Part shown: piece by piece, positions 200-64,000 of the stretch
How the letters are laid out: every line of letters starts with the position of its first letter
Numbering within the stretch: position 1 is the first letter of the stretch
Program-made: the position numbers and the translations under genes
The notes under the pieces: generated by a model
Told to the model about the DNA's origin: nothing
Databases searched by the model: none
The model's input: only the letters and a program-made list of their open reading frames with translations
Source of the DNA: Patescibacteria group bacterium
GTDB taxonomy: Bacteria > Patescibacteriota > Microgenomatia > UBA8517
Direction: 5' to 3'
DNA length: 64,000 nt
NCBI GenBank assembly: GCA_026416845.1
Contig: JAOAEL010000002.1
Location: forward strand, 111,422 to 175,421

Positions 200-211
200 C
201 TTTTAGATTGT

Positions 212-805
212 TCAAAAATCAATCGAAAAATCTAAATCAGGAGGCATAAATGCTTTCTCCCTAATGTTAGTAGAATCAATTTGTTTCACAAGAATGCTCA
301 ATTCCTCTTCCAACATTAAAATATTTTTATCATCTGCATAAATTGAATTCTGAATCGGTCTATACTCAAGCTGCATAGAAGTTGGAGTTTTTTCTAAAGA
401 AGTTAAAACATTCTGTTTTACATCAGATTTCAAAAATAAATTCAAAATTAAACCTGTGGTAAAAATAATAACAAATAAAGTTAACAATCCAATCAAAATT
501 TTTTTGACTAAAGTAAGTTTAAAAGAATTTTCAACTTTTGCAAACAACTGATTTACAACTTGGACAAAATCAAAACCGTTTTTCTTGTTTACATGCAATA
601 ATGCATGCCTTATTTTCTCTTCAACAAATGAAATAATTTTTTCCAGCACTTCTTTTACCTTTTTTATGTCAGAATTTATTGGATTATCCGCATCAGCAGA
701 CTTAATGTCTTCACTTTTGACACCATAAAATGTCTTTAAAGAAGATCCAGACTTACCCATTAACATATTAACCCAATCTGAAAAAAATTGTGATACTTTG
801 TCCAT
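212..805 (-). CDS. hypothetical protein with single predicted TM helix
   Basis: 197-aa ORF; hydrophobic stretch LIGLLTLFVIIFTTGLILNLFL; no recognisable motif. Confidence 0.45.
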   Translation of the reverse strand: MDKVSQFFSDWVNMLMGKSGSSLKTFYGVKSEDIKSADADNPINSDIKKVKEVLEKIISFVEEKIRHALLHVNKKNGFDFVQVVNQLFAKVENSFKLTLVKKILIGLLTLFVIIFTTGLILNLFLKSDVKQNVLTSLEKTPTSMQLEYRPIQNSIYADDKNILMLEEELSILVKQIDSTNIREKAFMPPDLDFSIDF

Positions 806-54828: not shown

Positions 54829-55887
54829 TTACTTTGTCATCCTTCTTTGAGCAATTATTTTACCATGCTTCCTCAATGCAAATTCTAGTTGCCTAACTAA
54901 AAGCTTTTGACTTTCAGGATCTAGACCCGACTTAAAAACTGTTTTAAGAGCTGAAAATTCTGGATCTGCTAAAATTCCTACCTTTAAATTTTGTGTCTCT
55001 GAAGCAAATTGTTCATAAAGCTTTTTACCCTTATCTGTCACCAATTCTTTCCTAACTTTTTCTACACTCATATCAGGAGACTTAAAAACATCTTCTAAAC
55101 CTTGAATCTCACTCATCCCCTGCAATCCAAGATTTGCCGATATAAGAACAATTTTAGCATAACCACCCAAATTAAATTTTCTATCTTGAAAAAACCCAAC
55201 TTGCACCATAGAAAGCTGATCTCCATCATGACAGGCTTGAGAAAACTCGCTACTTCCTGGCTTTCTAACCACAGCAGCTATTTCTTCATCCGAAAACCCA
55301 TTTCTTTCTGCTACTCCTTTATAATAACCTTCAAAATGATGCTCCAAGATTGCAGTTTTAACTTCTTCTTTTACTTCTTCAGGCAAAGCTCCTAATTTAT
55401 TCTCATCCATACAATCTGTCACCCAAAGAATGGCACTATACATATGGTGAGCTAGATCTTTTAAAGCAGGAGAACCATTCTTAGCTTTTTCAAGTATAGA
55501 ACGCTCAGCAGAACTTAAACCTAAAGTTTGGGCAACTTGTTCCCATTTGTCAGATGACATGATTTCCTCCGCTCGCTTTTGATCCCATTTGCCTCTATCA
55601 TGTCCATATTCAAAAAGTTTAATTTTTAAGATCTCTTCTTCTGTCAATCTACGTCCATACAAATCACTTAATATTTCGCTTGAATTTCTTAAAACAGCAT
55701 TCAAATGATCTTTTTGAGACTGACAATCAAATCTTTCCTCTAACAACCGATCAACATCTTTTTTCAAAAAATCTACTGCTTGCCTAAGCATTTCTACTCT
55801 ACTTTCTGAGGATTCAGTTGGCTGTACTTTTTGTTCTTGTTGGTCTTTGCCAGAAAAGTAAAGCTCGCCCGATGATCCTTCTAACAT
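54829..55887 (-). CDS. hypothetical acidic protein (352 aa) encoded antisense between rplA and rplJ
   Basis: Long ORF, Glu/Asp/Lys-rich, no TM; possible His-rich metal site (HHFEGY, GHDRG) but no confident family. Confidence 0.5.
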   Translation of the reverse strand: MLEGSSGELYFSGKDQQEQKVQPTESSESRVEMLRQAVDFLKKDVDRLLEERFDCQSQKDHLNAVLRNSSEILSDLYGRRLTEEEILKIKLFEYGHDRGKWDQKRAEEIMSSDKWEQVAQTLGLSSAERSILEKAKNGSPALKDLAHHMYSAILWVTDCMDENKLGALPEEVKEEVKTAILEHHFEGYYKGVAERNGFSDEEIAAVVRKPGSSEFSQACHDGDQLSMVQVGFFQDRKFNLGGYAKIVLISANLGLQGMSEIQGLEDVFKSPDMSVEKVRKELVTDKGKKLYEQFASETQNLKVGILADPEFSALKTVFKSGLDPESQKLLVRQLEFALRKHGKIIAQRRMTK

Positions 55888-57252: not shown

Positions 57253-57945
57253 TTAATCATTTGAAAAAGCTTCTCTTACACTCCTTCTTATTCTATGAAT
57301 AACAGATTTAATTTTAGAAACAGACATGCCCATATAATTGGCTATTTCTTCATAAGAATAGCCGCAGGCTAACAAATTAAAAATTAAGCTATTCTCTTTA
57401 CCTAAAAATAAAAACAAATCTTTCACCTTTTCAGCATTTTTTATTTTTTCACCAATTGGTTCAGTTGAACTAGGAATAAAATTTTGTAAATCAAAATTTT
57501 CATCATTATCTCTTGATACATCAAAATAAATCTGCCTTGCCCAAACTCTCTTTTTTCTCCTCAAATAATCTAAGCAAGTATTTCTAATCACCTTAATTAA
57601 CCAAGCTGCAAAACTCGTGCCACATGCTTGCTGTTGACAAGGACTTTTAGTTGATAATAGTTTGTAACATACATCTTGAAATATATCTTCAAAATCTGTA
57701 GGATCAAGCTGATCCTTAAAATTACTAGCAACTCTAATTGTTAATCTAAAAGCAAGACCATAGAAATTTTCCCAAACTTCACTATCGCCTTCTTGTAATT
57801 TTTTAAAACTAATTTGATCAATTAAGCAATATAAACCATCATTTAAAATTTCTTCATTCTGAGGAACCTGATCTCGAATCCGATCGTAAATATCATTCAA
57901 TTCATCAAAAACTGAAATAAATCTTTGGCCAAAAATTTCACACAT
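57253..57945 (-). CDS. sigma-70 family (ECF-like) RNA polymerase sigma factor
   Basis: Region 2-like FAAWLIKVIRNTCLDYLRRKKR and region 4 HTH GYSYEEIANYMGMSVSKIKSVIHRIRRSVREAF; 230 aa. Confidence 0.65.
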   Translation of the reverse strand: MCEIFGQRFISVFDELNDIYDRIRDQVPQNEEILNDGLYCLIDQISFKKLQEGDSEVWENFYGLAFRLTIRVASNFKDQLDPTDFEDIFQDVCYKLLSTKSPCQQQACGTSFAAWLIKVIRNTCLDYLRRKKRVWARQIYFDVSRDNDENFDLQNFIPSSTEPIGEKIKNAEKVKDLFLFLGKENSLIFNLLACGYSYEEIANYMGMSVSKIKSVIHRIRRSVREAFSND

Positions 57946-58098: not shown

Positions 58099-59760
58099 AT
58101 GTCAATAGAAACAAAAAATGTACTTTTCCCTTTGCGAACTGCTGACTATGCGAATTACCTTGCGACGCAAGAGAAACCACAACCAATTGAACTCTCTGAG
58201 GAAGAACGCAAACAAATCATTGCATACGAGGCCAAGCTTTACGAAGAGCTCTCCCCAACACTCAAAAAAATGGTTGGCATACACACAATATTTCCTGAAT
58301 ATTTAACTACCAATGAGGGCTGGCAAATGGCACAAAGCATATACTCAGCAAAAAATCCTGAAATTGTCAACATGCCAAAACCACAAAGCCTGGAAGAAGC
58401 AATAAATATTTTCAATAAATTGCGTATTTACAGTATAGACAAAGAATTAAGATCAGAAATCGAAGCAAAATCTCTAAGATACGCACGAGAAAAATTTATA
58501 GCAGGAATAGATAAGAATACAAATCCTGATGATTTAGAAGATCCAATTACTGCATCAAGGGTTTACAATCCCAAAACACTAATTCAAAAAACGCAAGAGC
58601 TAAGAGAATTCAAAAGAAAGTTAAAAGCAAGACGCGAAGGAAACACTCATAACAAAACTCAAACCAATTTGGAAATAGCAAAAGAAATAATTGACAGAAT
58701 ATATCAAAGATACATTAACGTCAGGTTGGCGGTGCTATATGAGGATGCTTTTGTGGCTTTAAACGATCCAGCAATTTCAGAAGAAGACAAAGAGAAAATA
58801 CGCAAACTATTCCCAGGACATAACACCAATGACAAAGACAGAAGAATTCAAACTCTTGGAAGAATTGAAAAATTTTACCAAGGAGCTGACAGAAAAGAAG
58901 GATCTTCCTACTTCCCAACAATATCCGAATCTATCGCATCAGCTATTGAGCAAAAAATGAGAATTGAAAATCAAGAAGGAAATGAATTATACCAAGAACA
59001 CCAAAAAATAAAAATTGACGCCAATAAATACCAAGAAATTGCAAACGCTGTCTTAGACCGCATGGGAGCAACTCAAGCTGGTTGGAAAACTAAAATACGT
59101 GAAAAACCTGGTGTGGCTACAGATCCCAAAGAAAAAATATACTACATACCAAAAGATTATAGTAGAAGTTTGCCCGCAACTATACAAAGTATTGCGCACG
59201 AAGCAGAAGGCCATATCTTGCGTGATTTAAACAAATCTAAACTCCCACTTAAATTACTAAAATATGGAAACACAGGACGGATTCAACAAACCGCAGAAGC
59301 CGCCGCTGTTTTTGTTGAGGAAGAAACAATACGGCGGGTATATGGACGAGAGAGACAAATGACAGGAACTTACTATATAATTATGAGAGAACGGGAAAAA
59401 GGAGGAAGCTTTAAGCATTGTGTTATAGCACTTGTAAGAAAAGGTAAAGATCCCAAAACAGCATTTACTAGTACTTTAAGAATCTTCAATAATGGCAGAA
59501 TCCCTCTTAATGATCCATCGCACCACATAGTAAATACAGAAGAACTTGCTTACCATGAACCAGTGGCAGAAAGGCTGGCAAAACTTGGTCTTAGTAAACT
59601 TCTTTTTGTCTCAGCAGTTGATATTTATACATACCAAGACTTGGTTAGAATTGGGATGTTACAACTTGATAAAATTCAAGAACCTCAATTTATAACAGCT
59701 GAAGTTGCGCTTGAAGTTTTAAGCAGATATTCTTCAGAATCAGAAAAGACAGTTAACTGA
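58099..59760 (+). CDS. HExxH zinc metallopeptidase-like protein (candidate DUF1704/MATCAP-type carboxypeptidase)
   Basis: 553 aa; single HExxH (IAHEAEGHILR) in C-terminal half; divergent from sigma gene; adjacent to three RimK-like ligases, the genomic context reported for DUF1704. Confidence 0.5.
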   Translation: MSIETKNVLFPLRTADYANYLATQEKPQPIELSEEERKQIIAYEAKLYEELSPTLKKMVGIHTIFPEYLTTNEGWQMAQSIYSAKNPEIVNMPKPQSLEEAINIFNKLRIYSIDKELRSEIEAKSLRYAREKFIAGIDKNTNPDDLEDPITASRVYNPKTLIQKTQELREFKRKLKARREGNTHNKTQTNLEIAKEIIDRIYQRYINVRLAVLYEDAFVALNDPAISEEDKEKIRKLFPGHNTNDKDRRIQTLGRIEKFYQGADRKEGSSYFPTISESIASAIEQKMRIENQEGNELYQEHQKIKIDANKYQEIANAVLDRMGATQAGWKTKIREKPGVATDPKEKIYYIPKDYSRSLPATIQSIAHEAEGHILRDLNKSKLPLKLLKYGNTGRIQQTAEAAAVFVEEETIRRVYGRERQMTGTYYIIMREREKGGSFKHCVIALVRKGKDPKTAFTSTLRIFNNGRIPLNDPSHHIVNTEELAYHEPVAERLAKLGLSKLLFVSAVDIYTYQDLVRIGMLQLDKIQEPQFITAEVALEVLSRYSSESEKTVN

Positions 59761-59775
59761 ATAATTCATTCAAAC

Positions 59776-60441
59776 TTATTCACTTTCTTCAGGTTCCCTG
59801 CCAGTCATTACAAGCCAAACCACCTCAACTAACTTAGGATCTATAAAAGGAGTTTGGTCATCCGGTCTTGGAACCCCTGCATCCTTAAAAAGTTCATCCA
59901 AATCTTGCAAAGCCGTTTGTAAATCTTCTTCTCTTTCACCAAACAATCTTTCAATTTCTAGTCTTGCACTTTTCCATAAGCTTTGGTTTAACCTATCAAC
60001 AAAAATACCAATCTCTTCATCAGTTTCCCCAAGCGCAATACCAAGAAGAATGACTACCAACTTCCTCAAACCTTCTGAGCGGAGATTGCCATCTTTTTCT
60101 TGAGATCTTGACTCACTGAACTCCAAATTTTTTACAAAATCTTCGATTTTCCTAAATCTTTCTTCGCTCAACACTCTTTCTCCCTCTAGCCACTGTAAAT
60201 CACTTATAATTTTATCATAAACGTCGCCAGCGTCCCCGTCGTCAACGTTATCAATAGAAACTAGTGCTCCAGAAAGCTCTAGAGCGCGTCTCATTACTTC
60301 TCTTTGGTCATCACTAAACATCAAAACAACAGGTTCATTTACAATATCTTCTAATGAAGCAAACTTACAATCAAGCTCTTTTAATCCTGGAACTTTTTCC
60401 GTTAAAGGGACCTGACCAGGCTGTTGTTCATAATTTGGCAT
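59776..60441 (-). CDS. acidic hypothetical protein ending in …TGREPEESE
   Basis: 221 aa, strongly acidic, no TM; C-terminus Glu-rich like the RimK substrate S6. Confidence 0.5.
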   Translation of the reverse strand: MPNYEQQPGQVPLTEKVPGLKELDCKFASLEDIVNEPVVLMFSDDQREVMRRALELSGALVSIDNVDDGDAGDVYDKIISDLQWLEGERVLSEERFRKIEDFVKNLEFSESRSQEKDGNLRSEGLRKLVVILLGIALGETDEEIGIFVDRLNQSLWKSARLEIERLFGEREEDLQTALQDLDELFKDAGVPRPDDQTPFIDPKLVEVVWLVMTGREPEESE

Positions 60442-60446
60442 AAATA

Positions 60447-60494
60447 TTAACGATATTATACAACATTAAACGATATTATACAACATTACTTGTA
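60447..60494 (-). promoter_or_regulatory. tandem 20-bp direct repeats each carrying an extended -10 (TGTTGTATAAT) plus an inverted third copy; candidate promoter/operator for the acidic-protein gene
   Basis: aacgatattatacaacatta x2 (60447-60486) followed by cttgtataatacaa; reverse complement reads TGTTGTATAATATCG twice, 5-45 bp upstream of the 60441 start. Confidence 0.4.
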
Positions 60495-61384
60495 TAATAC
60501 AATTTCTCAAAATACTCCACAATCGCTTTTGCCACATTAATTCCAGTTGACTCAATTCCTTCAATTTGCGGACCGGGGTTTACTTCCAAAACATAAGGCT
60601 CGCCTGTTTTTGCATGAACCATCACATCAACTCCTGCTATTTCAGTTTGCATAATTTTAGCCGCCAGTTCAGCTACCTCTTGAACCTTTTTGTTTTTGGA
60701 AAGATCAAATCTTGCCACACTGCCCCCTTGGCTTACATTGCTTCTGAAATCGCCTTTCTTGGGAGTGCGTTTGATTGCTCCAACTGCCTTGTACCCAACG
60801 CAAAACACGCGAATGTCTCCATCATTTGGTATAAATTCTCTGACAACACAAGATTTGACATTTTCTGTCAACAAGGAAACCATTTTTTCAAGCTCTATTT
60901 CATCTTTGACAAGATACACATCCTCTCCTCGATGTCCTTGGCTTGCTTTGACTATAAGTGGGAAGGTAAATTGTTTTTTTATACTCTCAACCGATCTATC
61001 AGAGAATAAAATCGCACTTTTCGGATAATTTATTTTTGCTTCTGTTTGTTTCAAATAATCAATCGCTGGAGTTTGGTAATAATTGTACGCAGGATCAATG
61101 GATTTTTTATTCACTATTATGGTTTTATAGTTTTTGTGAAGATACAAAGCCGCTGTAAACCACTCCCATAGTCTACTGCCAACAATCATATATATAAGAT
61201 CATATTCTTCAAGCTTTTTGCCACTTGAAAGCATTGGCTTGAAATTATTTTTGTCCGCCAAAATTACAAGTTCAGATGCCAAACATCCATCAACACTATG
61301 ACCCTTTTTTTCTGCTTCTTCCTTTATACGAAGGAATTGAGGCTTTTTGGTAAGACCAGCTATTAGTATTTTCATTTTTTTCAC
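60476..61384 (-). CDS. RimK-like ATP-grasp ligase (alpha-L-glutamate ligase family) paralog 1
   Basis: 302 aa; ATP-grasp core …FPLIVKASQGHRGEDVYLV…REFIPNDGDIRVFCVGYKAVGAIKRTPKKGDFRSNVSQGG…GVDVMVHAKTGEPYVLEVNPGPQIEGIE. Confidence 0.8.
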   Translation of the reverse strand: MKKMKILIAGLTKKPQFLRIKEEAEKKGHSVDGCLASELVILADKNNFKPMLSSGKKLEEYDLIYMIVGSRLWEWFTAALYLHKNYKTIIVNKKSIDPAYNYYQTPAIDYLKQTEAKINYPKSAILFSDRSVESIKKQFTFPLIVKASQGHRGEDVYLVKDEIELEKMVSLLTENVKSCVVREFIPNDGDIRVFCVGYKAVGAIKRTPKKGDFRSNVSQGGSVARFDLSKNKKVQEVAELAAKIMQTEIAGVDVMVHAKTGEPYVLEVNPGPQIEGIESTGINVAKAIVEYFEKLYYTSNVV

Positions 61385-61389
61385 AAAAT

Positions 61390-62310
61390 CTATCTTGCGT
61401 TTGCTATTGCATATTGCAAATATTCCTTTGTTATATTTTCGCCAGTCGCCTCCTCCATACCAAGCATGCCGGGCGTATGATTGGCTTCAAGCACATACCT
61501 TCTGCCATCTTGTGTGATTAAAATATCTACCCCCCCAATTGTCAGTCCTACAGCGTCAAGGGCTTTTCTTGCGAGATCAATATCTTTTTGATCTGGAGCA
61601 AACAATTCAACTGAACCACCAAGCGAAAAGTTTGCTCTGAAATCACCTTCTTTGGGAATTCGTTTCATACAATAAACTTTTTCTCCAATCACTAAAATTC
61701 TAAGATCATGAATATAAGGAATAAATTCCTGAATCACAAATCGCTCTGCTTCCTTTTTTAATTTAAATTCCTTTTCATTCGGATCAAGACCCAAACTATC
61801 AATTAAACTTTCTCTTTCTTTTATAAACAAGTCAAGCTCTTCCTTGCTAGCTACTTTGTAAATCCCTTTACCCCTTCCTGTTTTAGTTAGCTTGATAATT
61901 GCAGGATAGCCAACATTATTCACAACTTCTTCATACATGCTAAAATAGGACACATGGTAAGTCTTGGGCATTGGTATGTTGTAAGTTGCCAACTTTATAA
62001 AATCGGTTAATTTATTAATAGAATATTTGTGATTAAGAAGATTATTGTCAAAAACTTTTACTCCCTTTGTTTTGTAATAAGAAACCAAAGCGGTAATTGC
62101 GTGAAGTAATTTGAAAATCGCACGAGTGATAATTATATCTCCCTTTCTAGGCTCGTAACCTTCAACCTTTATTTCGCCATTTACTATCGAATAATTAAAA
62201 TCTTTGAGGCTAAGCAAACAAAAATCATAACCTAAAGCCTGCGCCTCTTGCGCAATTCTTCCTTGCTCTCCCATCTCAGGGCTTGTGGTGATAACAACTA
62301 TTCTTGCCAC
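61390..62310 (-). CDS. RimK-like ATP-grasp ligase paralog 2
   Basis: 306 aa; …YPAIIKLTKTGRGKGIYKV…QEFIPYIHDLRILVIGEKVYCMKRIPKEGDFRANFSLGG…GVDILITQDGRRYVLEANHTPGMLGME. Confidence 0.8.
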   Translation of the reverse strand: MARIVVITTSPEMGEQGRIAQEAQALGYDFCLLSLKDFNYSIVNGEIKVEGYEPRKGDIIITRAIFKLLHAITALVSYYKTKGVKVFDNNLLNHKYSINKLTDFIKLATYNIPMPKTYHVSYFSMYEEVVNNVGYPAIIKLTKTGRGKGIYKVASKEELDLFIKERESLIDSLGLDPNEKEFKLKKEAERFVIQEFIPYIHDLRILVIGEKVYCMKRIPKEGDFRANFSLGGSVELFAPDQKDIDLARKALDAVGLTIGGVDILITQDGRRYVLEANHTPGMLGMEEATGENITKEYLQYAIANAR

Positions 62311-62332: not shown

Positions 62333-63649
62333 TTATTCTTTTTTCTTATCTACATCTATCCGTGGTTTCACCAGAAAACCAGCCAAATCTTTTCTGCCAA
62401 TAATCACTTTCCTTTTAAGATTTTTGCGATCTGTAACACCAGCCATCGTGGTAATTTTTTTGCCTTTTAGCCAATATGTAAAAACAATTATAGGTCGATC
62501 TTCCTGCACTCCAAGAGCGCTTTGAACAGTTCTTTTTTTGATAATATTTTCAGGTCTGATTAAATTTAATTCTTTCGCAAGCTTAACATCTATAGAAGTT
62601 CTCCACGCGCCAGTGTCAATTTTTGCCAAGACTTTCACTTTCTTCCGCTTTGACGATTTAATGGCAATCTCTTCCAAAGCTGATATGACTTCCTTATCCT
62701 TTTTCAAAACTTTTTCTGAGAAGTATTCTGAAAAAAGCGCTTTTGCTATATTTACCCCATGTTCAGCATTTCTCACTTTTAATTCATCAACTCTATCAAG
62801 CCTGCGTTTCAGCCCCGCTTGATTGGCAAGCTGTATTGCCAAGCCAGGCATGCTATTTAATTCAAGCACCATTGGTCCTTTTTCGGGATGAATCACAATA
62901 TCCGCTCCTAAATATCCAAGTTTGCTTACTTCTTGGCATTTGACTGCTATATCCAAAATTTTGTCCCAGTAAGGAATTTTAATTCCATGAAGCTTCCTTT
63001 TAGTGCCTGGTTTAAACTTAATAGGTTGACCATACATCACAGCTTTTGTGGTAATTCCAGTTGCTATATCAATACCCACCCCTATTGCTCCCTGATGAAG
63101 ATTAGCGCGCCCACCTGAATCTTTAGTGGGAAGCCTAAGCATTGCCATAACAGGCACTTTGTTAAAAACAATTATTCTAATATCCGGTGTCCCACGATAA
63201 GCATACTTGCGAAACGCTTTGTCCCGACCAACATATTCTTGAATAAAAGCAACATCAGGAATATTCCCGTAAGAAAAAGCTCCTTCAAGAATATCCATTA
63301 CATGAAGCTGAAAATCAGAAACAATCATCCTTTTCCTCTGTGTTGTCACCCAATATACACTACCATCTTTAGTTTTCACCTTTTTTTTGATAACGATAAT
63401 GCCCTCACCTCCAAAACCTTTTGAAGGCTTTATAGCAAAAGCCCCTGGTATACTTTCCCAATCAAAAGAAAATACATCGGAGGGAGATTTAAACTTGGCA
63501 TAAATTGTTGGAGTCGGTATTTCAGCTTTTTTTAGAACTTTAGCAGTCAAAAGTTTTGACGCTGCAATACGTTTACCCTTTTTTGTGTTGTAGGGATAAG
63601 AATAAAGCTTGGTGCGAGCATTAAGTCCTAAAATAGAAGATAGTTTCAT
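62333..63649 (-). CDS. RimK-related ATP-grasp ligase fused to C-terminal retropepsin-like (DTGA) protease domain
   Basis: 438 aa; N-terminal ~300 aa ATP-grasp (…IKPSKGFGGEGIIVI…FIQEYVGRDKAFRKYAYRG…DIRIIVFNKVPVMAMLRL…GGRANLHQGA…GADIVIHPEKGPMVLELNSMPG); C-terminal ~120 aa with VLAKIDTGAWRTSID aspartyl-protease signature (the so-called ATP-dependent zinc protease domain that accompanies RimK). Confidence 0.75.
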   Translation of the reverse strand: MKLSSILGLNARTKLYSYPYNTKKGKRIAASKLLTAKVLKKAEIPTPTIYAKFKSPSDVFSFDWESIPGAFAIKPSKGFGGEGIIVIKKKVKTKDGSVYWVTTQRKRMIVSDFQLHVMDILEGAFSYGNIPDVAFIQEYVGRDKAFRKYAYRGTPDIRIIVFNKVPVMAMLRLPTKDSGGRANLHQGAIGVGIDIATGITTKAVMYGQPIKFKPGTKRKLHGIKIPYWDKILDIAVKCQEVSKLGYLGADIVIHPEKGPMVLELNSMPGLAIQLANQAGLKRRLDRVDELKVRNAEHGVNIAKALFSEYFSEKVLKKDKEVISALEEIAIKSSKRKKVKVLAKIDTGAWRTSIDVKLAKELNLIRPENIIKKRTVQSALGVQEDRPIIVFTYWLKGKKITTMAGVTDRKNLKRKVIIGRKDLAGFLVKPRIDVDKKKE

Positions 63650-63655
63650 TTTACT

Positions 63656-64000
63656 TTAACTTTTTATTAATTTTCTAAACCTCCAAAGTTCAAGTAATCT
63701 AAGACCAACATACTGCCCAAGCAAAATGTTCGCGACAAATACACCAATCATCAGCACCTCCGGGTTCAAAAGTGCAAAAACTTGAATTGGTTCAAGAGTT
63801 AAAAACAAATATGAAACAAGAGCAAGCAAAAGAGTTTCTGTTGTTATTCCAACAGCGTAACGAGCGCTTTTGCCAAGCTGAGCTTTTGTAAAATCTTCAG
63901 CCAATAAAACTAATATAAGAATAGGGAAAATAGATACATTTGCAATGGCAGAAACAGAAAAATACGGGGCAAAAAACAAAAGACACAAAACGCCAAGCAC
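63656..64000 (-). CDS. C-terminal multi-TM fragment of an upstream-starting gene (candidate 7TM partner of the RimK/protease system)
   Basis: 114 aa open to window edge, 3-4 hydrophobic helices; 6 bp upstream of the ATP-grasp-protease fusion, consistent with co-transcription. Confidence 0.4.
   Translation of the reverse strand: MLGVLCLLFFAPYFSVSAIANVSIFPILILVLLAEDFTKAQLGKSARYAVGITTETLLLALVSYLFLTLEPIQVFALLNPEVLMIGVFVANILLGQYVGLRLLELWRFRKLIKS

Follow-up and report, generated by a model that had tools for sequence, protein, structure and literature searches.

What is the role of an acidic protein whose gene stands directly behind a row of ATP-grasp ligase genes? The question is raised by a window of 64,000 nucleotides (the whole stretch of DNA analyzed here) from contig JAOAEL010000002.1 of an uncultured Patescibacteria group bacterium, in which an open reading frame (ORF) encodes a 221-residue protein, X221. 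The sequence-only reading of this DNA had proposed X221 as a substrate of the adjacent RimK-type ligases. The ORF, with its ATG start on the minus strand and its ...TGREPEESE end, was confirmed, and so was its place directly downstream of three ATP-grasp genes on the same strand. We tentatively favor, as a good possibility, the reading that X221 would be a dedicated partner of the RimK-type ligase encoded upstream, and probably its acceptor, because the junction between the two genes is invariant in the loci compared and the extreme C terminus is the sole strongly constrained part of the protein. The operon runs in the order 7TM_transglut protein, G438, G306, G302, and X221, given here from the X221 end:

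59776..60441, minus strand: X221, ATG-started ORF of 221 amino acids with the C terminus ...LVMTGREPEESE (...TGREPEESE)
60476..61384, minus strand: G302, RimK-family ATP-grasp ligase of 302 amino acids (Pfam RimK, TIGR00768)
61390..62310, minus strand: G306, second RimK-like ATP-grasp ligase of 306 amino acids, about 29% identical to its paralog G302
62333..63649, minus strand: G438, RloC-like ATP-grasp ligase (ATPgrasp_ST) with a C-terminal RimB/RloA-like retropepsin domain, 438 amino acids (PF14397; TIGR02291, alpha-L-glutamate ligase-like)
63656..64000, minus strand: RloB-like seven-transmembrane (7TM) membrane protein (PF14402, 44.9 bits), cut by the window end

The X221 gene can be considered real, since it has four homologs of 210 to 232 amino acids and the closest pair shows a ratio of nonsynonymous to synonymous substitution rates (dN/dS) of 0.40. 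These homologs (P0005 to P0008), all from Patescibacteria, were obtained by searching exhaustively through 1.84 billion cluster representatives; a HMMER scan found three (210 to 221 amino acids, 30 to 36% identity), and a profile search brought the fifth family member (232 amino acids). Overall identity among the five is 28 to 44%. Scans of genome and metagenome contigs with the X alignment and a tblastn search of plasmids gave no match, a word-indexed protein search with X221 returned the protein itself alone, a gene-context look-up for its exact sequence gave no record, and no fusion proteins were found among the homologs; a genome scan with the alignment of the G302 ligase, aimed at positional orthologs of X, also returned nothing. 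The identical NCBI entry is a hypothetical protein from a Patescibacteria metagenome-assembled genome. The four homologs were placed on contigs (L003, L004, L005, and L006), which together with the window make up the five X loci compared here.

In all five, X lies immediately downstream of a ligase of the G302 orthogroup; homologs without RimK neighbors, which the sequence-only reading had named as grounds for abandoning its proposal, did not appear. The ligase-to-X junctions measure -4, +1, -11, and -4 nucleotides in the four homologous loci and +34 nucleotides in the window, so that the stop codon of the ligase and the start codon of X overlap or abut in 4/5 loci. The 34-nucleotide spacer between G302 and X221 is explained by a short duplication:

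60449..60488, no strand: perfect 20-nucleotide tandem duplication (AACGATATTATACAACATTA twice), spanning the G302 stop codon

A TATAAT-like sequence in this spacer was considered as a promoter of X and rejected, since it is 3' ligase-gene sequence copied by the duplication. Given the junction lengths and the duplication origin of the window spacer, X is predicted to be translationally coupled to the G302-type ligase.

The rest of the gene neighborhood is partly fixed and partly fluid. Wherever the contig reaches far enough, orthologs of the 7TM protein, G438, and G306 come before the G302 ortholog, and the operon opens with the 7TM gene and a peptidase domain in the window, L003, L005, and L006 (L004 is cut upstream). 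The number of ATP-grasp genes per locus goes from three (window) to five (L003), and both L003 and L004 have two further ATP-grasp orthogroups downstream of X. Judged by these gene orders, the junction of the G302-type ligase with X is the one invariant of the loci, while the extra ligases, a MATCAP-like peptidase gene, and a sigma factor gene (both described below) vary.

The second line of evidence is the C-terminal tail, which was compared in the five members (alignment A3):

59779..59817, minus strand: C-terminal motif W209-x3-T213-G214-R215-E216-x2-E219-x-E221 (WLVMTGREPEESE), proposed ligation site
C terminus of X221 (window): WLVMTGREPEESE
C terminus of P0005: WMAITGREIVEED
C terminus of P0006: WMAITGREIVENE
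C terminus of P0007: WMAMTGREIVED
C terminus of P0008: WMAITGREIVEIDKKVN

W209, T213, G214, R215, E216, and E219 are invariant, and the 13-residue window 207-219 ranks first of 209 in mean pairwise identity (0.75, against 0.378 overall). The proteins end in ...EESE, ...VEED, ...VENE, ...IVED, and ...EIDKKVN; the sequence-only reading had asked whether homologs keep an acidic C terminus, and four of the five do end in Asp or Glu, but P0008 does not. A terminal Asp or Glu is found in 15.7% of the background genes of these loci. At least three Asp or Glu among the last five residues occur in only 4 of 127 crude gene calls from the window and related loci, and three of these four are X members. 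The conservation of the tail stands out because the rest of X is fast evolving. Between the window and L005, X is 30% identical and the ligases 80 to 90%, and between L005 and L006 the dN/dS of X is 0.40, against 0.05 to 0.11 for the ligases and 0.08 to 0.13 for the ribosomal proteins (the sigma factor reaches 0.61). Overlap with a downstream gene was discarded as a cause of this conservation, since 3' overlaps do not exceed 8 nucleotides. From the alignment, the extreme C terminus appears as the only strongly constrained part of X.

X221 itself has an isoelectric point (pI) of 4.31, 23.5% Asp plus Glu, and a net charge of -26; among the 50 window ORFs with 150 amino acids or more, none is as acidic (the runner-up has 17% Asp plus Glu). 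The G+C content of the window is 33.8%. An AlphaFold2 model built from the five-sequence alignment is all-alpha and globular, with a mean predicted local distance difference test score (pLDDT) of 75.4 and a predicted template modeling score of 0.76. Confidence is low only at residues 1-8, 62-76, and 108-120 and in the last three (pLDDT below 50 in these three), while block 211-220 has a mean pLDDT of 72, which places TGRE inside a moderately confident region. X221 is described here as a cytoplasmic, all-helical protein of an unclassified five-member family, with a last three residues that are probably flexible. The family had no match in Pfam, NCBIfam, PHROG, or PADLOC, the X profile had no meaningful match among PDB sequences, and Foldseek found nothing significant for the X221 model in the PDB; no family, enzyme motif, or fold match points to another role. 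A defense system or mobile element was also considered and found no support in the PADLOC, PHROG, and plasmid searches. Within the family X221 is an outlier: it is 28 to 33% identical to P0005-P0008 although the flanking ligases are 80 to 90% identical to those of L005 and L006, and it lacks the F-R-x-[IL]-x-x-G-R-G motif common to the other four members (alignment A3). The locus of this outlier (net charge of -26, lost motif) is also the one that has the convergent MATCAP-like gene.

Among the upstream ligases, G302 scores above the RimK-family cut-offs (TIGR00768, 146.1 versus 143.4 bits; PF08443, 117.3 versus 21), its best relatives in the PDB are the RimK structures 7qys, 5zct, and 4iwx (expect value [E] of ~1e-23), and its GDFRSN, GG, GVD, and EVN motifs align with the solved RimK structures 7qys and 5zct. 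Its orthologs are 72 to 84% identical. G306, with orthologs 65 to 80% identical, gives 80.6 bits with PF08443 (cut-off, 21) and 117.7 with TIGR00768 (cut-off, 143.4), and G438 gives 230.8 bits with PF14397 (cut-off, 31.4). The metal-binding Asp, Glu, and Asn positions are kept in G302 (GVD...EVN), G306 (GVD...LEAN), and G438 (GAD...LELN). Matches of the ligases to the TTL family of Pfam are marginal. For G302, scores fall below the equivalogs of S6--L-glutamate ligase (PRK10446, 96.1/331 bits), LysX (98/275.6), and MptN (104.7/350), and ArgX (3vpb) is matched with an E of 2.6e-16; being about equally distant from the RimK, LysX, and MptN equivalogs, its substrate and amino acid specificity are not assignable.

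The observations behind the acceptor reading are the gene order, the translational coupling, the conservation of the tail, and the intact metal-binding motifs of the enzymes. From these we infer a ligation to the tail, the identity of the added amino acid, and an effect of the modification on X. The ligase would phosphorylate the alpha-carboxylate that ends the conserved W-x3-TGRE-x2-E-x-[DE] tail and then attach an amino acid, by default Glu if the analogy with RimK relatives holds. The paralogous ligases G306 and G438 may start or lengthen the tail, and the retropepsin domain fused to G438, together with the MATCAP-like carboxypeptidase where present, would trim it; both peptidases of the locus (RimB/RloA-like and MATCAP-like) belong to families whose members take off C-terminal or polyglutamate residues. 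The most elaborate version, in which the X family would be a dedicated acceptor on which three to five ligases write a tail extension, maybe heteropolymeric, to be edited or released by the retropepsin and the MATCAP-like enzyme, we regard as improbable.

Convergent with X221 and with 15 nucleotides between the stop codons, there is a gene for a metallopeptidase:

58099..59760, plus strand: M553, MATCAP/DUF1704-family metallopeptidase of 553 amino acids (PF08014, 31.5 bits; cut-off, 27)

The sequence-only reading had described a convergent HExxH peptidase; the orientation held, but the motif, H367-E-A-E-G-H372, is HExxxH. Together with E400 downstream, it is unchanged in three homologs, the most distant of which is 39% identical, so that M553 has the sequence features of the MATCAP/DUF1704 family (PF08014 above the gathering score, HExxxH, and the downstream Glu). 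Its NCBI name is DUF1704 protein, and neither the protein nor its profile had a meaningful match in the PDB, including the solved MATCAP chains. The same HExxxH has been described in MATCAP/TMCP, carboxypeptidases that trim the acidic tails of tubulin and deglutamylate them (PMC10499314). Related genes were found in two loci without a visible X. The ortholog of the first (L001:9001-12081) is 85% identical, diverges from a lone RimK gene, and is followed by a nucleotidyltransferase-like ORF, and that of the second (L002:2954-4615) is 39% identical and comes directly after rplL. These orthologs suggest that the link of M553 to RimK-type ligases and to this chromosomal position is wider than its link to X.

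A sigma factor gene is found downstream of the cluster, with orthologs in three of the X loci:

57253..57945, minus strand: extracytoplasmic function (ECF)-like sigma-70 factor; the window copy ends in ...FSND
L004:5272-5937, L005:4885-5601, and L006:10738-11478: sigma orthologs

It is directly next to X in two of the five loci (35 nucleotides away in L005 and 38 in L006), and its dN/dS is the highest in the block, above that of X. In L003 there is no sigma gene within 17.8 kb and X is flanked by ligases, while L001 has a sigma gene and a RimK gene and no X within 12 kb.

Taken together, the ligase block can be described, on sequence grounds, as an Rlo-like core (an RloB-like 7TM protein and an RloC-like ligase-retropepsin) with two RimK paralogs. 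RimB and RloA cleave polyglutamate, and in Pseudomonas aeruginosa genetics places the RloB/RloC product upstream of polyglutamate-cleaving proteases, the identity of this product and the in vivo substrate of the system being unknown (PMC11957051). The similarities to RloABC of P. aeruginosa (PMC11957051) are a 7TM_transglut protein, an ATPgrasp_ST ligase, and a RloA/RimB-like retropepsin. G438 has the RloC-like ATP-grasp features of such systems (ATPgrasp_ST and TIGR02291), although at 265.4 bits it is under the equivalog cut-off of TIGR02291 (314.2). There are also differences. RloA is a separate, secreted retropepsin with a signal peptide, whereas the domain here has no signal peptide and is fused to the C terminus of the cytoplasmic G438; it carries a DTGA motif in the translation and is matched weakly by NF052264 (RloA3) and by PF05618 (23 bits, below the cut-off of 27). 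The same fusion is present in L003, L005, L006, and L007, a more distant locus. In the 7TM protein the inactive transglutaminase domain is missing: full-length orthologs have 292 to 305 amino acids, 85 to 86 bits with PF14402, and no further domain, and a transglutaminase-like domain was absent from the window fragment, from these orthologs, and from the upstream ORFs. Finally, the operon here also contains X and at least two additional RimK paralogs, and it comes from a Patescibacterium, while RloB has been reported as 96% proteobacterial. The literature searched did not describe an architecture in which an Rlo-like core has its ligase fused to a retropepsin and its 7TM protein lacks transglutaminase, with additional RimK paralogs and a candidate acceptor encoded in the operon as well. 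The enzymes are thus of known kinds (RimK, RloB/C, RimB/RloA, and MATCAP), while X belongs to an unclassified family for which no relative by fold could be detected.

The 2025 Rlo study states that polyglutamylation is known for just two bacterial proteins, ribosomal protein S6 (RpsF) and SdeA of Legionella (PMC11957051). The poly-alpha-glutamylation of S6 by RimK, with RimB as eraser, resembles the X operon in the RimK-family G302 with its aligned catalytic motifs, in the RimB-like retropepsin domain, and in the proposed chemistry, by which a residue would be added onto the C-terminal alpha-carboxylate of an acidic tail. Unlike in the X operon, S6 is not encoded beside rimK, and X, the candidate acceptor inside the operon, is unrelated to S6; three to five ligase paralogs replace a single one, none at the score of the S6-ligase equivalog (96 versus 331 bits). 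The cycle of the tubulin tail (TTL/TTLL and MATCAP/TMCP; PMC10499314) is similar in combining ATP-grasp ligases, an HExxxH MATCAP-family peptidase, and an acidic-tailed protein; the sequence-only reading had drawn a parallel with tubulin and TTL. However, X is unrelated to tubulin or FtsZ, the ligases are RimK-type and not TTL-type, and the peptidase accompanies X in one locus only.

Several observations weigh against X221 as an acceptor. The five X loci represent one syntenic lineage of Patescibacteria (secE-nusG-rplKAJL) and are not independent observations; adjacent ribosomal-protein genes are equally conserved, so that the co-occurrence would be partly phylogenetic inertia. The parallel with the Glu-Glu end of S6 did not survive, since X221 ends in Ser-Glu and none of the five members has a terminal Glu-Glu. 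Richness in Asp and Glu is true of X221 but is not a family trait: the pI values of the five members are 4.3, 4.8, 6.1, 6.9, and 6.3, with high acidity limited to X221 and P0005. Nor is a free acidic end strictly kept, since P0008 has a stop-loss extension; compared with its 76%-identical sister P0007, the stop codon TAG has changed to AAG and an Ile codon has been inserted, so that translation continues into the former 3' untranslated region and ends in ...EIDKKVN. In the model, just ~3 to 5 residues extend beyond the structured TGRE region, which would be a short handle compared with the tail of S6, and the invariant internal motifs seen in alignment A3 (e.g., R150...W156-K157-x-A159) imply a role beyond tail carrying. 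The MATCAP-like gene is beside X in the window only (L003 to L006 have X without it), and sigma factors end in Glu-Glu in three of five loci (...SVEE in L004, ...LLEEE in L005, and ...SFEE in L006). Hence, the substrate proposal withstood the comparison of neighbors and tails, while its arguments from Glu-Glu, global acidity, and the peptidase failed. Translational coupling also fits a stoichiometric subunit that is not a substrate. Under this explanation, which we consider rather unlikely, X would be a regulator, specificity adaptor, or scaffold of the ligase complex, much as RimA and RimB tune RimK, and its C-terminal motif would be a docking or structural element. Control of RimK activity by partner proteins is known (PMC11957051, with reference to Little et al. 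and Grenga et al.), and the coupling in 4/5 loci suggests stoichiometric coproduction. A globular helical protein of 220 residues with several invariant internal positions, a TGRE located in a moderately confident part of the model (block 211-220), and the tolerance of P0008 for a nonacidic extension would all suit a subunit. However, docking on a ligase that is 72 to 84% conserved should constrain more than the last 13 residues of a protein with 28 to 44% identity, and the enrichment of terminal Asp or Glu is left unexplained. That X is instead a lineage-specific gene without functional tie to the ligases, held in place by conserved synteny, is very improbable. The wider gene order shared by the five loci (secE-nusG-rplKAJL and sigma) may mean that the linkage is simply inherited, and the dN/dS of X indicates relaxed constraint; nevertheless, the ligase-X junction stays constant while its surroundings change (extra ligases in L003 and L004, MATCAP in the window, no sigma in L003), and start and stop codons overlap.

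The number of ligases suggests another possibility, also quite improbable, namely, that X is a carrier or primer comparable to LysW, on which three to five ligases would build a peptide or metabolite to be released by the peptidase and exported by the 7TM protein. LysW is a zinc-finger protein of ~54 amino acids that ends in EDWGE and uses the gamma-carboxyl of the terminal Glu. The LysW/LysX-ArgX systems share with the X operon a small acidic protein encoded beside a RimK-family ligase and a conserved acidic C-terminal tail as the site of ligation (a proposed one in X), and G302 is about as near to LysX, ArgX, and MptN as to RimK (~96 to 105 bits; E of 2.6e-16 with ArgX 3vpb). Several nonredundant, individually conserved ligase orthogroups per locus, the 7TM gene and peptidase domain conserved at the operon start in all loci with sufficient contig, and a product of Pseudomonas RloB/RloC acting upstream of polyglutamate-cleaving proteases, its identity unknown (PMC11957051), would also agree with a carrier. 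X221, however, differs from LysW-type carriers in size, in its helical model, and in its tail: with 221 residues it is four times the size of LysW, it has no zinc-finger cysteines, and it ends in TGRE-x2-E-x-[DE] instead of EDWGE. Side-chain (gamma-carboxyl) chemistry is made less likely by a terminal residue that is Glu in some members and Asp in others. Enzymes of the lysine and arginine pathways are absent from the X locus, where the neighbors are ligases, peptidases, the 7TM protein, and the sigma factor, and no kinase, reductase, aminotransferase, or other tailoring enzyme was found in any of the loci. As judged by its sequence, the sigma factor is a formally equal acceptor candidate for the ligases, and the true acceptor might be this protein or an unlinked S6, with X as a partner of sigma (anti-sigma-like) or an adaptor; to this explanation we give as little credit as to the carrier. 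In its favor, the sigma orthologs of L004, L005, and L006 end with the canonical RimK acceptor motif, the sigma gene follows directly on X in two of these loci, and fast evolution sets X and sigma apart from an otherwise conserved block (dN/dS of 0.40 and 0.61), as expected for a coevolving regulatory pair. The existence of X in L003 without a nearby sigma gene and of sigma and RimK in L001 without a nearby X argues against it, as do the tails of the sigma factors of the window (...FSND) and L001 (...KDFQ), which are not Glu-Glu. A test of X221 as an anti-sigma factor found no known anti-sigma domain in Pfam and no such fold in the PDB, and no S6 gene was found in the window by tblastn with E. 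coli and B. subtilis S6 queries.

If X221 is the acceptor of the ligase and its tail is written and edited, it would represent a counterpart, in bacteria, of the tubulin tail code or else a case of protein-primed nonribosomal peptide synthesis with export via the RloB-like 7TM protein, and it would reveal the kind of substrate on which Rlo-type systems act. Eukaryotic tubulin would then no longer be the only case in which an ATP-grasp ligase and a MATCAP-family peptidase are combined with an acidic tail. A ligase operon with its own candidate acceptor would make the question of the Rlo substrate (PMC11957051) directly testable. The reach of these proposals is limited to five known X members, all from uncultured Patescibacteria, and the evidence is wholly comparative.

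A metagenome scan with the G302 alignment found two distant loci. One of them (L007:2514-6652) is a module with a 7TM protein, an ATPgrasp_ST-retropepsin, and two RimK genes, on a contig that ends before any X position; the other (L008:432-1865) is a marine contig in which a single RimK protein of 477 amino acids is fused to a retropepsin-like domain (DTGN) in an unrelated context. Ligase-retropepsin fusions thus recur outside the X lineage. The ligase operons of L003 and L006 are flanked by large ORFs of 289 to 815 amino acids (L003:3024-5742, L003:12929-14206, and L006:2220-5860), which had no Pfam match above the cut-off and a single sub-threshold one, SurA_N_3 in the 289-residue ORF of L003. 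Two of them, of 615 (L003) and 815 (L006) amino acids (L3_615 and L6_815), are 27% identical, and these ORFs may belong to the same system as the ligases. Farther along the window, the ribosomal-protein cluster of this lineage contains a conserved protein of 352 to 362 amino acids between rplA and rplJ, on the opposite strand, that had no significant match in Pfam and is also present in three of the other loci:

54829-55887, minus strand: rplA-rplJ insert protein, also at L001:5817-6899 (69% identical), L005:6932-8020, and L006:12800-13885

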